This document shows positions 44,326 through 48,902 of a DNA stretch of 55,008 bases, in pieces. Source of the stretch: a virus (Duplodnaviria; Heunggongvirae; Uroviricota; Caudoviricetes). Numbering within the stretch: the stretch's first letter is position 1; each line of letters begins with the position of its first letter. The position numbers were made by a program, and so were the translations under genes. The DNA lies in IMG/VR virus record IMGVR_UViG_2925891887_000003. One strand, 5' to 3'. The notes under the pieces were generated by a model. It had not been told where the DNA came from. It made no database searches and saw nothing but the letters and a program-made list of their open reading frames with translations.

Positions 44326-45135
44326 TCAATGAACGGTATCGAGCAACTTTAACAGCTCAGGGAATCGGGATTCGAAGAAATGCGGCTGCGTCTCACGCGG
44401 ATTTGCGGGACTGGTGATGTTCTTGCCGAACATGCAGCCTTTCGCCGTCAGCGACCAGAATTTTTTGATGTTGTTAATCGCGGTACGGCTGTATCGTTCG
44501 CGCTGCTCGACGATCCCCAGCTTCGCCATCTGGTGATATGCCTGATTAGCCGTAAGGCGGATACCATACTGTTTCAGCAGTGCACTCAGCGACAGTGTCG
44601 GGCGGCTTGAGCCATCAGGCGCGTCAGCAGGAGCATCAATGGCATAGCGCGGTGCCAGATTCGGTAAGCCAACAGCCTCCTGGAGTTTCTGACAGGCCCC
44701 AAGCACTGAAGAGTTAGACAGGTTTAACTCCCTGCGCATAAAGTCCAGCAGAATCACTCCAGCCTGCATCTTGTCAGCAGCCTGCCCGGATAATTTTTCC
44801 GGTACGCTGGTTACCATATCGAAAGTACGGATCACCTTCAGATGGAATGACGGGCTGATCCACATTGCATAGGCATACACCAGTTCCTTGCAGACATAAG
44901 TTCCCCGTTCATTTCCCCCATGAATCACACTCACCGGGTCAACACCCAAATTCTGGGTGTTGGTCAATTCATGAACAAGTTCAACAGTTTGTTGGCTGGA
45001 AAGAAACTTTCCTGGCTCCTTGGTTCTGGCATTTGCACCAGATGCTACTGCTGCGCGATGCAGATCGTTCAGGCTGTAACGCCCATAAGCATCACGACGA
45101 ACTTCAATACCATCAATGACCATCAGATTATTCAT
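44326..45135 (-). CDS. KilA-N domain protein (antirepressor-like)
   Basis: ATG at 45135 with AAGGAG RBS; IDGIEVRRDAYGRYSLNDLHRA...GTYVCKELVYAYAMWISPSFHLKVI matches the KilA-N fold pattern. Confidence 0.6.
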   Translation of the reverse strand: MNNLMVIDGIEVRRDAYGRYSLNDLHRAAVASGANARTKEPGKFLSSQQTVELVHELTNTQNLGVDPVSVIHGGNERGTYVCKELVYAYAMWISPSFHLKVIRTFDMVTSVPEKLSGQAADKMQAGVILLDFMRRELNLSNSSVLGACQKLQEAVGLPNLAPRYAIDAPADAPDGSSRPTLSLSALLKQYGIRLTANQAYHQMAKLGIVEQRERYSRTAINNIKKFWSLTAKGCMFGKNITSPANPRETQPHFFESRFPELLKLLDTVH

Positions 45136-45544: not shown

Positions 45545-45867
45545 ACTTTCAGCTCCCTCTCATGTAACCAGTGGGCTGCACGCAGCCTGGCGTTTTCCTC
45601 ACCGGCAAGCAGTGCGCGGATAATCCCGACCGCCTCGCTGTCGTCGTCCTTCACCGCGGTATGAAGCGTTATCCCCCGGGCCACGCCACGCTTTATCGTG
45701 ATGACGCCTTTTTTCTCCAGTGCACGAAGATGCTCTACCGCTGCATTCACTGAACGGTATCCCAGCATGGTTGCCACCTCCTGATTGGTTGGCGGAAAGC
45801 CACGCTCTTTCTGGTAAGAAATCAGCATATCCAGCACCTGCTGCTGGCATTGAGTTAACGTCGTCAT
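45541..45867 (-). CDS. LexA-N-terminal-like winged-helix DNA-binding protein
   Basis: 108 aa; LTQCQQQVLDMLISYQKERGFPPTNQEVATMLGYRSVNAAVEHLRALEKKGVI resembles the LexA DNA-binding domain; no peptidase domain. Confidence 0.6.
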   Translation of the reverse strand: MTTLTQCQQQVLDMLISYQKERGFPPTNQEVATMLGYRSVNAAVEHLRALEKKGVITIKRGVARGITLHTAVKDDDSEAVGIIRALLAGEENARLRAAHWLHERELKV

Positions 45868-46517
45868 GCCGCCATCTCCCTGACCAGTTTTTCCGCCTGC
45901 TGGCGAACCTGCACCAGAAAGGCTTCACCACATGCCTCAAGTTCATCGCGCCCGATGTAGCTGATTGCCGGTCCCTTCCAGGTCTTGTCGAAAACAGCAA
46001 TAGCACCAGCGAAGAAAGCGCCTGTCGGCACCTGCTTCTCATCCTTCGGGATAAACCAGGCAGGCAGTTCAAAACCAATACGCCCGCGAATAAAAGCAAT
46101 ATGGTCCGCATCTTCCGGCCACCACACTTCGCTGGTGGCAGCTTTGATCAGGAAAACATAGCGCCCGCCCTTATCACGCATGGCACTGGCATGTTTCATG
46201 ATGTAACGCATGCCGGTGATGTATTGCCCCTCATGCTGACTGGCGCGGCTGTATGGGGGATTACCAAAGGCAGCACCTTTAAGCTCCGCAAGGCGTTCTG
46301 ACCAGTCATGCGCCAGCGCGTTGTCTTCCGCCGTGTAATACGCAGCACATTTGGCGTTATCACCGTCAGTGAACAGATCCAGAACAAACGGGCCAAACAG
46401 GGTGTTAATTCCCCAGAAAATGTTGTCCGGCGTGCGCCACTGATCGCCCACTTCCTTCAGTTCATGGGCTGGTTTGTTCCGCAGTTCCACCAGCGCCTGG
46501 CAATATTTATTACTCAT
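45864..46517 (-). CDS. phage N6-adenine DNA methyltransferase (Dam-like)
   Basis: ATG at 46517 (MSNKYCQ...); motif FGNPPYS (N6-MTase motif IV). Orphan: no adjacent restriction enzyme. Confidence 0.75.
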   Translation of the reverse strand: MSNKYCQALVELRNKPAHELKEVGDQWRTPDNIFWGINTLFGPFVLDLFTDGDNAKCAAYYTAEDNALAHDWSERLAELKGAAFGNPPYSRASQHEGQYITGMRYIMKHASAMRDKGGRYVFLIKAATSEVWWPEDADHIAFIRGRIGFELPAWFIPKDEKQVPTGAFFAGAIAVFDKTWKGPAISYIGRDELEACGEAFLVQVRQQAEKLVREMAA

Positions 46518-47005
46518 TAAGCCCCCACGTAATTCCCTGACAGATACCACTCTTCACCCGATGCAGCGCGCTTGCTGCTTTTCCGTAAGCACCGCTCACG
46601 ACGCGCCAGAAAATTGTTTCGTTCTGGCTGGGAGTGGCTTTCACGGAATGCCGCCATCCACACGGTTGCAGCACGACGGTATAAGCCCCTGGACTCCAGT
46701 TCTTCAGCCTGGCGGGTCAGGCACAAAATCACCCGTGGATCGTTAGTGCCGACATAGAAATTGCGCACAGGTCTGGTTTCTCGAACTGGTTGTGGTTCCG
46801 GTTCCTGCGCTCTCTCAGTCAGGCGCGGGAAATGTCTGCGTGTATCTCCTTCACAACGGTGAGCCACACGCCCACTCTGACGTAACTTGCTTGCTGACTG
46901 CAGAACGCGCTGCCGTGAGTAACCTGCAAAAGCATCCGCAATGTCTCCGGAAGTACATCCCGGATGGGCTTCAATGAATTTCTGAACTTCATTCAAAAGA
47001 CTCAT
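46517..47005 (-). CDS. hypothetical phage protein downstream of the replication initiator
   Basis: ATG at 47005, 2 nt after the O-like stop; basic protein, no motif recognised. Confidence 0.45.
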   Translation of the reverse strand: MSLLNEVQKFIEAHPGCTSGDIADAFAGYSRQRVLQSASKLRQSGRVAHRCEGDTRRHFPRLTERAQEPEPQPVRETRPVRNFYVGTNDPRVILCLTRQAEELESRGLYRRAATVWMAAFRESHSQPERNNFLARRERCLRKSSKRAASGEEWYLSGNYVGA

Positions 47006-47007
47006 GA

Positions 47008-47949
47008 TCACCCCCTGAATCCTGCCGGGATCTGGCTGTAGTCCACGTTGTCGTAACTGGATTTGAAGTACGGGTCTTCGCGTTTTTCGGTGTACGTGCT
47101 GACGGACGGTGATAAGCGCAGGGAAAGCTCATCCCATTTTTCCCGCAACTTCGACGGGCTGAGCACGTTACGGCACCAGAACGGATCGCGGCTGACGCGG
47201 CTGTACATCTCGCAGATTTGTTTGTGAGTACGACCATCCTGCACACACATCAGGCGAATTTCGTTTGCCCAGGCTGTCCAGTTCGGTTCTTTGGGACGAA
47301 CCACCTCGCCGTCACATTCGGCGGCTTGCTCGTACAGGGCGATGATTTTTTTCCAGAGCCACTGTGCGCAGGTCAAATCATCCTGCGTTCCCCACTGGCG
47401 CTTTTTAGGGCTGAATACAACCGCATCAGGATGGCGAGTTAAAAAACCCTGTTCATCCGTCTGCGTGTCCGGTTGCGAAGCGTCCGGACGAGAAGGTTTT
47501 TTATCTGACGGATCATGTTTTGATTTTACTGACGGATCCCCGCCAGATTCTGACGGGTGAAAACCCGCTTTTTTGCCAGATTTCGACGCATCAAATTTTG
47601 ACGGGTCAGATTTTGATGCGTCAGATTTTGACGGGTCAGAATCTGACAGTTGAGAAAATGCCGCTGCCTGAAGCTTCGCAACGTTAAGCTGATAAACATT
47701 CGACGCATTGCGGTTACCCTGGCGACGCGCCTTACGCGTTAACCAGCCTTCTGCTTCCAGCCGTGCGATAGCCGTCCTGACGGTACTCATCCCCGCGCCA
47801 ATCTGACGGGCAATAGTTTCAATTGATGGCCAGCACACACCTTCGTCATTACTGAAATCAGCCAGGCGGGCCATAATTGCCACGCTGGATAATTTCATGC
47901 CTGATGCAGCACAACCATCCCATACATAGCCGGTTAATTTAGTGCTCAT
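47008..47949 (-). CDS. replication initiator (O-like, HTH N-terminal domain) carrying internal origin iterons
   Basis: 313 aa; N-terminal winged-HTH (SIETIARQIGAGMSTVRTAIARLEAEGWL); central low-complexity SKSDASKSDPSKFDASKS region encoded by DNA iterons; AGAGG RBS. Confidence 0.7.
   Translation of the reverse strand: MSTKLTGYVWDGCAASGMKLSSVAIMARLADFSNDEGVCWPSIETIARQIGAGMSTVRTAIARLEAEGWLTRKARRQGNRNASNVYQLNVAKLQAAAFSQLSDSDPSKSDASKSDPSKFDASKSGKKAGFHPSESGGDPSVKSKHDPSDKKPSRPDASQPDTQTDEQGFLTRHPDAVVFSPKKRQWGTQDDLTCAQWLWKKIIALYEQAAECDGEVVRPKEPNWTAWANEIRLMCVQDGRTHKQICEMYSRVSRDPFWCRNVLSPSKLREKWDELSLRLSPSVSTYTEKREDPYFKSSYDNVDYSQIPAGFRG
47522..47655. repeat. origin-like iterons (about 7 copies of a ~15-17 bp GATTTTGACGGGTCAGA-type repeat)
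   Basis: gattttactgacggatc / gattctgacgggtga / gatttcgacgcatcaaa / attttgacgggtcaga / ttttgatgcgtcaga / ttttgacgggtcaga / atctgacagttgaga, all inside the initiator gene. Confidence 0.65.
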
Positions 47950-47958
47950 GACCGACCT

Positions 47959-48297
47959 CTATTTCCCTGAATTTACGACGAAACTGTTCGAGCAGGCTGA
48001 AGCACTCATGCTCATAGCCTTCGCGGAGGTAGATAACTCGTTGTGTTTCCGGCTCCCAACGAATGACTCTGACGGGCACTCCGTAGTGATCTTTGAACCA
48101 GCGGTTAACTTGTCGCAAAGGACTGTCTCCTTCTGCCGGTTGAAATCACCCACAGCCCACTCAGCAAAGCTGTGGGTTACAATTTCCCTGTCACCTGGTA
48201 CATTTACTGCATAGCAATACTCCACCTTCGCTTTTCCACCCGGTACAGGAAGCGCAATCAGTTGCGAGCGACGGTAGTGTGTTGTTAAACTGTTCAT
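47959..48297 (-). CDS. hypothetical protein in the early-right operon
   Basis: 112 aa; ATGA overlap with the upstream gene's stop. No motif recognised. Confidence 0.4.
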
Positions 48298-48902
48298 GCG
48301 TTAGTTTCTCCACAGTCACGACACGCCACGGCGCCCGGAGCTGCACACTCGCGGGCGTCATTACTTTCTGAAATGCAAAAGATTTTGTAGACCAGTGCTG
48401 CATGCTCCTGCAGCTTCGAAATTGAGAGATACAGCTCGTCGTTAATTGCTGTCTTCTCATGCGGTTCCACCACACCGTCTTCGATTGCCGAACGAATCTG
48501 TCTGGAATAACTGCCAATCTGTTCAATGACTTCCAGCAGGCGCTGGTTAATATCGGCGTTGTCCACATCCTCGACGTCAGGAAGAGACACAAAGACGCCA
48601 TTTGCAGACTGCGCCACAGCGTCAGCAATGAAGTGAGTTCCACCAGCACGTTGCAAAATCATTGCCCATCCCAGCGGGAAAATCTGATCGCCATCGGCAC
48701 GAAGGCGGTTAAATAATGCGTTTTCTGTTACATCCAGCCAGTCAGCTGCTTCAGCGTAACCACCCGGCAACGCTGCGATAGTTTTTCTGACAGCTTTCAC
48801 GTACCACTCAGGCTGTTTTTCTACTTTCCAGTGATGCTTACCCACGGTTAGCCTCATCGTTCTGTGGTTTCTGTTAATCGATTTATCCATTAGATTTTTC
48901 AT
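48294..48902 (-). CDS. YdaT-like / CII-like early regulatory protein
   Basis: ORF 48294..48959 (GTG); candidate ATGs at 48902, 48890, 48857. Immediately downstream of the Cro-like gene as in Rac-type ydaS-ydaT modules; assignment is positional. Confidence 0.4.

Follow-up and report, generated by a model that had tools for sequence, protein, structure and literature searches.

The Initiator Gene and Its Genomic Setting

The window (the whole stretch of 55,008 nucleotides of viral DNA that was analysed) contains an early-right lambdoid operon that encodes a CI-like repressor, Cro, a CII-like protein, a DUF4222 protein, a replication initiator, a PerC-like protein, a Dam methyltransferase, a LexA-like protein, and RusA. 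The LexA-like label is taken from the annotation of homologous phage records. The initiator gene (Table 1) is found in databases under several names: 'primosomal protein' in phage records, 'replication protein O', and 'helix-turn-helix domain-containing protein'. PHROG 391 (phrog_391, 'replication initiation O-like') covers the entire protein with an E-value of 7e-135, and a tblastn search with lambda O as the query matches the gene at E 4e-22. The C-terminal domain of lambda O shares 38% identity with residues 166-277 of the initiator (E 7e-17). On this homology the gene is an O-like initiator, as the first-pass annotation had held, with a lambda-O-like C-terminal domain.

The N-terminal part belongs to another family. 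The sole Pfam domain of the initiator is HTH_36 (aa 23-70, E 4e-11), whereas lambda O matches PF04492 (Phage_rep_O, E 6e-36), for which this initiator gives no match. An AlphaFold2 model has an N-terminal winged helix and a confident helical C-domain, separated by a segment with pLDDT below 50 that is predicted to be a disordered linker. Foldseek and PDB sequence searches returned no solved relative of the initiator, only generic winged helices of the MarR/ArsR type.

How widespread is this gene? Its DNA is 98-99.7% identical in the Shigella phages SfII and SfIV and in several E. coli phages, and the protein is 100% identical to one encoded on a Shigella flexneri chromosome (locus L006). A 181-bp region of the gene is found at an identity of at least 90% in 1949 of 5426 complete E. 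coli genomes, as well as in SfII and SfIV; among the top matches listed, RefSeq annotates this region merely as part of a 'helix-turn-helix domain-containing protein'. The matches in PLSDB include no small plasmid with this initiator as its sole rep gene; they are prophages on large replicons, an e14-like circle of 15 kb, and a circular phage genome of 44 kb, and say little about autonomous replication.

The initiator is not accompanied by a recognisable helicase gene. No homologue of lambda P, DnaC, or DnaB is encoded anywhere in the 55-kb window, and a P-like gene is present at only 2 of 59 homologous loci and a DnaC-like gene at 4 of 59. A gene for a Dam-type methyltransferase lies at most 3 kb downstream in about 36 of the 59 loci, a count that has no control set.

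A Repeat Array within the Linker-Coding Region

Tandem Repeats Finder reports positions 47577-47640 with a period of 15 (4.3 copies, 81% matches) and also with a period of 30 (88% matches), while a further repeat search returned 5-copy families spaced 15 bp apart and many short inverted repeats. On the sense strand the repeats read TCT GAC CCG TCA AAA ... and encode SDSDPSKSDASKSDPSKFDASKS, a run of SDPSK peptide repeats. When TYTGAYGSRTCM is allowed at most one mismatch, this loose motif occurs seven times on the plus strand from 47504 to 47638. Its strand-hits across the window total 18, where 7.7 are expected, and none of 100 shuffles attains 18. The refined motif YCRRAWTYTGR, matched exactly, gives 14 strand-hits compared with 3.2 expected (again reached in 0 of 100 shuffles). 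Six of its eight positions in the 55 kb fall inside 104 bp, at 47543-47646, with only two elsewhere and no second cluster in the window.

What is the repeated unit? When the homologues are read codon by codon, the correct register is TCArAWTCTGA, centred on the K/E codon. The conserved unit is TCA-rAA-TCT-GAy (Ser-Lys/Glu-Ser-Asp), to which one variable codon is added (P, A, T, G, V, R, H, M, and others), giving the 15-bp period. The register implied by the first-pass annotation must therefore be abandoned, since the unit conserved in 59 homologues is TCA-rAA-TCT-GA instead. The 11-bp core, TCAGA-W-TCTGA, is palindromic, and CAGAWTCTG can be taken as the conserved near-palindromic core; all six cores fit TCArAWTCTGr, each with internal dyad symmetry. 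Another register, in which the D-x-S codons form the centre of a 10-bp palindrome (TGACnnGTCA), was rejected: the x codon varies from one homologue to the next, and the GTCA arm varies with it.

Five of the sites (S1-S5) stand in tandem and the sixth (S6) lies apart, within a 19-bp near-palindrome that is also given as CCCGYCAGAATCTGRCGGG. Of all the sites, S6 is the best conserved in the family: its block is conserved at 90% or more across 56 homologues, third codon positions included. The sites occupy nt 304-407 of the gene, or aa 102-136, and the whole array falls inside the predicted disordered linker, in agreement with the earlier claim that the repeats encode a repetitive linker. That claim spoke of about seven direct repeats in the coding sequence; they are real and clustered, but the 'seven' resolve into five tandem units, one separate site, and two half-site/GATC repeats. 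The span originally assigned to them, 47522-47655, is in the right place and inside the O-like gene, for which the strand can now be given as minus, but the feature reaches to about 47493, and a start at 47522 leaves out the second GATC along with the greater part of the AT-rich stretch.

Two kinds of signal were searched for around the array. A perfect DnaA box (TTWTNCACA) is absent from 46500-48500, where three boxes with one mismatch occur, none of them adjacent to the sites; no promoter-like site was found in 46900-48100.

Table 1. Features of the initiator gene and of the candidate origin within it (positions in the window)
Feature	Position	Strand	Description
O-like replication initiator gene	47008-47949	minus	313-codon ORF, 313 aa
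Parts of the initiator protein			winged HTH, aa 1-98; disordered linker, aa 102-163; lambda-O-like C-domain, aa 166-280
Coding region of the N-terminal wHTH domain	47656-47949	minus	presumed iteron-binding domain; Pfam, AlphaFold, structure matches
Tandem 15-bp units S1-S5	47576-47646	minus	repeat finding, weight matrix, codon constraint
11-bp cores S1-S5	47636-47646, 47621-47631, 47606-47616, 47591-47601, 47576-47586	minus	sense strand, in order: TCAGATTCTGA, TCAAAATCTGA, TCAAAATCTGA, TCAAAATTTGA, TCGAAATCTGG; one variable codon after each
Site S6	47539-47557	minus	core TCAGAATCTGG (47543-47553) within 19-bp near-palindrome CCCGTCAGAATCTGGCGGG
Two half-site/GATC repeats	47529-47538 and 47505-47514		
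GATC site A	47535-47538		within GGGGATCCGTCAG; GATC (Asp codon + next base) in 56/56 homologues
GATC site B	47511-47514		within CATGATCCGTCAG, 24 bp from site A; GATC in 50/56 homologues
AT-rich 40-mer	47493-47532		GC 0.30, gene mean 0.52; candidate DNA-unwinding element

Selection on the Repeats as DNA

Homologues were taken from 80 homologous loci in species-representative genomes and from five phage records, which gave 59 genes after reduction to a nucleotide identity below 93% in the N-domain. The set comes from Enterobacterales, and the protein identity of the N-domain goes down to about 41-50%. Comparison of the repeats across related prophages had been proposed at the outset, with their absence in homologues as the observation that would count against an origin. 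The array is present in all 59 non-redundant homologues of the N-domain, and this comparison gave no refutation. The homologues carry 4-10 units, mostly 5-6, with a spacing of exactly 15 bp in 213 of 275 cases, and among close relatives the copy number shifts by whole 5-residue units.

To guard against circularity, codon usage was assessed in motifs defined by protein sequence only, namely the 176 occurrences of S[KE]S[DEGV] in the linkers of the 59 genes. The first serine is encoded by TCA in 164 of the 176 (93%), compared with 15.6% of Ser codons elsewhere in these genes, and the second by TCT in 147 (84%), compared with 8.1% elsewhere. Lysine is AAA in 113/113 cases and glutamate GAA in 63/63, against 59% and 55%, respectively, in the remainder of the genes. 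Fisher tests give p of about 1e-93 for Ser1 and 1e-96 for Ser2, values that overstate independence because the homologues are related; this concern is limited by the near-saturation of third positions in the N-domain. Between genes, third-base identity at identical residues is 0.84 in the array and 0.43 (42.5%) in the N-domain, where it falls to 37% at residues with four or more codons. With agreement this low in the N-domain, shared ancestry alone does not explain the identity of the array. Furthermore, conservation is periodic, the x codon being variable, and not segmental, which argues against the recent transfer of a whole segment.

Exceptions to the protein motif are also informative. The replacements found at Ser2 (F, P, Y, C, and T) are radical as residues, and yet they are single-base changes that retain the final T (nnT). 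In phiP27 L17 and in one further locus (L076), one extra copy of TCAGAATCTGG/A lies in another reading frame, where it encodes LQNL (Leu-Gln-Asn-Leu). From this pattern of codons and replacements it is concluded that the sites are selected as double-stranded DNA, the SDPSK repeat in the peptide being for the most part their by-product. Constraint of this kind at the DNA level points to selection for initiator-binding sites.

The AT-Rich Segment and the GATC Pair

The gene-downstream side of the array is also conserved. When each whole gene is scanned in 40-bp windows, the one lowest in GC begins 0-8 nt past GATC site A in 47 of 55 homologues; these minima have a GC content of 0.25-0.35, compared with 0.50-0.56 for the whole genes. 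Downstream of S6 in the gene, a block conserved at 90% or more reads TTTTSACCCGYCAGAATCTGGnGGGGATCCGTCAGTAAAwTCAA...GATCCRTCAG; its mean third-position information is 1.17 bits, compared with 0.59 in the N-domain. Both GATC sites are held at synonymous positions. They are the only two present, and both lie outside the tandem array. The Asp codon of D-P dipeptides provides an internal control: it is GAT in 105/105 cases in the GATC block and GAC in 80/80 cases in the tandem array.

Association of the Array with the N-Terminal Domain

Which protein binds the sites? The array accompanies the same N-domain across three unrelated types of C-domain (lambda-O-C-like, Phg_2220_C, and the P27/SfV type), while the neighbours of array-bearing homologues (cII-like, DUF4222, PerC-like, and Dam genes) come and go between loci. 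The converse situation is seen in mEp460_4F5, where the same C-domain (about 97% nucleotide identity) is combined with a different N-domain, the two being joined just after the AT-rich block; its linker contains 5.4 copies of an unrelated 23-24-bp unit together with AT-rich repeats of its own. A third N-domain, with a third set of repeats, is found in SfV orf39. Since the array follows the N-domain and is swapped when the N-domain differs, the initiator's own N-domain is the obvious binder, and we infer from this co-inheritance that it binds the array sites. The predicted recognition-helix segment, STVRTA (aa 55-60), is invariant in five aligned divergent homologues, bar one A/L change; as the core site also hardly varies among the aligned sequences, residues of the helix offer little variation to correlate with site variants.

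Comparison with Known Origins

The classic origin of this layout is that of phage lambda, where four iterons of roughly 20 bp, along with an AT-rich tract, occupy the middle of gene O (PMC7466680). Here, as in lambda, multiple dyad-symmetric repeats lie in the linker-coding middle of the initiator gene, with an AT-rich segment of about 40 bp on their gene-distal side. The C-domains are homologous, and both genes follow cro and cII-like genes in an early rightward operon. Even the relative position is nearly equal, nt 304-407 compared with nt 349-433 of O for the annotated lambda iterons. The differences concern specificity and detail. The N-domain is HTH_36 and not Phage_rep_O (PF04492), the site CAGAWTCTG is unrelated to the lambda sequence ATCCCTCAAAACGAGGGA, and there are six 11-bp cores at a 15-bp period in place of four iterons of about 19 bp spaced 20-24 bp apart. 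The AT-rich minimum of lambda, which begins 3 nt after iteron 4, has a GC content of 0.20 and is more extreme than the 0.30 found here. The two conserved GATC sites have no counterpart in the AT-rich segment of lambda that was read, and no P gene follows the initiator.

Initiators of differing specificity are known from other lambdoid phages. In the Salmonella phages P22 and L, origins are predicted inside gene 18, whose coding region holds a set of iterons particular to each phage; those of L are six imprecise 11-bp repeats (PMC8022706), similar in size to the core described here. However, the L repeat is TGTCCAACGGA, and both P22 and L encode a DnaB-type helicase (gene 12) beside the initiator, whereas this window encodes none. 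The 'primosomal protein I' of mEp460_4F5 and SfV orf39 occupy the same slot as the present gene and have the same neighbours (PerC-like/orf40, dam, and rusA), and each has a repeat array in its linker. They differ in their N-domains and in the repeats themselves, which are 23-24-bp GGTCAAAATGACACG... units in mEp460_4F5 and 21-24-bp GGTAGTGCAGGAGATTCACCA units in SfV. To judge from their sequences, these variants illustrate the pairing of N-domain and iteron specificity that is the classical lambdoid pattern.

Rep proteins with an HTH_36 domain are known initiators of plasmids in Alphaproteobacteria (PMC3832669). Iteron-containing plasmid origins, such as P1 oriR, those of F, pSC101, and RK2, and those of HTH_36 Rep plasmids, resemble the present locus in having a winged-helix initiator, direct repeats, and an AT-rich region. 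In P1 oriR, GATC sites are found in the AT-rich part. Origins controlled by methylation, of the oriC or P1 oriR type, have a cluster of conserved GATC sites in the unwinding region; the present locus shows just two, held at synonymous positions. Plasmid iterons usually lie outside the rep gene, however, and are about 17-22 bp long and about two helical turns apart, with DnaA boxes alongside. By contrast, the sites described here are 11-bp cores inside the gene at a 15-bp period, and within 1 kb of them a perfect DnaA box is missing. The locus would thus work like lambda ori but would represent a different type of specificity, its N-domain lying outside the lambda O family.

A Model for Initiation

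The segment 47493-47646, within the linker-coding part of the initiator gene, is probably the replication origin of a lambdoid prophage of the SfII/SfIV type (a probability of about 0.8), at which the N-domain would bind, the AT-rich DNA would melt, and the C-domain would recruit the helicase. This agrees with the first-pass annotation, which had proposed a probable prophage origin arranged as in lambda. The comparative evidence supports the proposal through the same relative position, the dyad-symmetric repeats, the adjoining AT-rich 40-mer, the synonymous constraint, and the co-inheritance with the N-domain.

From these features we infer a sequence of initiator binding, unwinding, helicase recruitment, and origin firing. 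The N-terminal winged-helix domain, probably as dimers, would bind the six near-palindromic sites with the core CAGAWTCTG. Five sites placed every 15 bp and a sixth in the 19-bp palindrome would give rise to a nucleoprotein complex, which may destabilise the adjoining 40-bp AT-rich segment with its two GATC sites. The lambda-O-like C-domain would then recruit the helicase machinery of the host. With about 1.4 helical turns between sites spaced 15 bp apart, neighbouring dimers would sit on almost opposite sides of the DNA helix. Given this spacing and the 11-bp cores, a wrapped structure similar to the O-some should not be assumed.

How might the helicase be loaded? As the phage encodes no helicase loader, this step would need the DnaB and DnaC proteins of the host. 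It is the weakest step of the mechanism, because loader and helicase genes are absent here and at most homologous loci, and because no perfect DnaA box is found within 1 kb. Weigel and Seitz (2006) reportedly catalogued 'initiator-solo' modules. It is tempting to speculate that this is a loader-less, methylation-gated origin. The GATC pair, together with the downstream phage Dam, might make firing, or the sequestration by SeqA that follows it, dependent on adenine methylation; the C-domain might recruit host DnaB-DnaC without a P-like loader, and the linker peptide would be essentially dictated by the DNA sites. This extended scheme is doubtful, if conceivable.

Alternative Explanations

Could the repeats be no more than a low-complexity protein linker of SDPSK units, generated by slippage and without a function as DNA? 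The region is predicted to be disordered, the period is a multiple of three, and close relatives differ by whole 5-residue units, all of which would fit such an origin of the repeats. The codons tell otherwise: synonymous choices are fixed by position (TCA, TCT, AAA, and GAA, with Asp as GAC or GAT depending on context), third-base identity in the array exceeds that in the N-domain by 0.84 to 0.43, radical changes at Ser2 keep the DNA pattern, and copies occur in another reading frame. By codon analysis this explanation is largely refuted, and it must be regarded as very improbable. Constraint might instead act on the mRNA, through its structure, ribosome pausing, or an antisense RNA, and not on double-stranded DNA. 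Palindromes could fold in RNA, and the antisense strand has a predicted hairpin at 47554-47567 that resembles a terminator; its 5' arm, however, is unconserved among homologues, and the hairpin was dismissed for that reason. Moreover, proteins that bind DNA as dimers typically recognise short dyad-symmetric cores at a fixed spacing, like those conserved here, and no promoter-like site was found near the array (46900-48100). Selection on the mRNA is hardly credible.

If the sites act as DNA, they might still be bound by another protein, such as a phage regulator or host SeqA, IHF, or DnaA, for the regulation of early transcription and not for initiation. Their position within the early rightward operon would suit such a role, and the conserved GATC pair might attract SeqA or Dam. 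Against this, the array tracks the initiator N-domain irrespective of the genes around it and is swapped where only the N-domain is swapped; a perfect DnaA box is lacking, and the GATC sites number only two, outside the tandem array. Regulation of this kind by another protein is decidedly unlikely. It is also quite unlikely that the initiator binds the sites only for autoregulation, copy control, or incompatibility (by titration or handcuffing), with strand opening elsewhere in the prophage. Iterons serve such control roles in plasmids, the AT-rich stretch is modest (GC 0.30), and neither a loader gene nor a DnaA box is nearby. A purely regulatory array does not readily account, however, for the lambda layout, nor for the fact that in 47 of 55 homologues the AT-rich minimum of the gene comes directly after the sites, with conservation extending to third codon positions; the 55-kb window contains no other cluster of the motif.

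Novelty and Significance

Full-text literature searches for the site sequences and for the origins of SfV, SfII, and SfIV found no description of this origin, although an earlier mention in Allison et al. 2002 (the SfV genome) or in Weigel and Seitz 2006 is possible. The SfIV genome paper discusses the replication module and mentions no origin. This version of the origin therefore seems undescribed; the arrangement of an origin inside the initiator gene is itself already known and ordinary.

Naming the probable origin and its site consensus would improve the annotation of prophages and would help to predict the incompatibility and specificity of replication modules. It would also be of use in the design of minimal replicons and in the interpretation of deletion variants in defective prophages. 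The understanding of lambdoid origins is unchanged unless the loader-less or GATC aspects prove to be functional; new insight could come only from the conserved GATC pair and the missing loader. The linker-coding region is also a clear case, fit for a textbook, of protein-coding DNA constrained by a second code, for DNA binding, that overlaps it.

Variation within the Candidate Origin

How constant is the array of 15-bp units in the linker-coding DNA of the initiator gene? Among close relatives of the initiator (P0007, P0009, P0015, P0016, P0018, P0029, and P0048), protein lengths differ by entire five-residue (15-bp) units, giving approximately 2 to 9 copies. Several close relatives have undergone repeat-to-repeat deletions that removed most of the array; the GATC-containing, AT-rich block GGDPSVKSKHDPS is retained in every one of these deletion variants. 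The GATC pair is kept at synonymous positions across genera. In approximately 36 of the 59 homologous loci, the 3 kb that follow the initiator on its downstream side include a Dam methyltransferase gene of the PF05869 family, a count that covers loci with this initiator alone. The GATC pair and the nearby Dam gene suggest that the candidate origin may be subject to control by methylation or SeqA.

Sites are also found outside the usual frame or place. Two homologous loci carry an additional 11-bp site, TCAGAATCTGG/A, in another reading frame: L005 (phiP27 L17) at gene nt 453-463 and L076 at gene nt 450-460. Here the site encodes T-L-Q-N-L-D, in contrast to S-E-S-G in the usual frame. Beyond the origin, the degenerate site pattern matches the window at only two places, one copy each, which is consistent with chance. 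Between array unit S5 and the separate conserved site S6, the antisense strand of the initiator gene has a terminator-like hairpin; it is probably fortuitous, because homologues do not conserve its 5' arm.

Features in and around the candidate origin
Feature	Position	Strand	Remarks
GATC pair	47511-47514 and 47535-47538		24 bp apart, AT-rich part
Hairpin	47554-47567	plus	CGGGTGAAAACCCG then CTTTTTTGCC
164-aa ORF	46517-47011	minus	next after initiator
Dam methyltransferase gene	45864-46550		PF05869
Degenerate-pattern matches	44946-44956 and 52634-52644		CCAAATTCTGG and TCGGATTCTGG

Helicase Loading

How would DnaB be loaded by such an initiator, above all by one with a lambda-O-like C-terminal domain? 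In lambda, the C-terminal domain of O binds P. The C-terminal domain of the 'solo' initiator, whose gene lies at 47008-47949, is lambda-O-like, yet the whole window (1-55008) has no gene for a helicase or helicase loader of the lambda P, DnaC, or DnaB type. A P-like gene adjoins the initiator in only two of the 59 homologous loci (drawn from L002-L085), and a DnaC-like gene is present in four.

Neighbouring and Derived Sequences

The start of the 164-aa ORF overlaps the initiator stop codon by 4 nt. Its N-terminal half is HTH-like and its C-terminal half belongs to the PerC family (Pfam PF06069, E 8e-9); it is a homologue of PerC/Pch-type transcriptional activators within the replication module.

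Truncated initiators occur in two E. coli chromosomes (L075 and L085) and in L089 (OR902851.1), a 15-kb circle carrying icd, mcrA, and hin. In all three, the first 79 codons of the initiator (99% identical) continue in-frame into what looks like terminase large-subunit sequence, forming an ORF of 455 aa from which the array and origin have been lost. This fusion resembles ymfN, a deletion relic of the e14 element.

Four homologous loci (L035, L040, L059, and L071) come from assemblies labelled Chryseobacterium, Vagococcus, Martelella, and Pseudomonas lundensis. Their module versions are typical of Enterobacterales; the probable explanation is contaminating contigs or wrong assembly labels.
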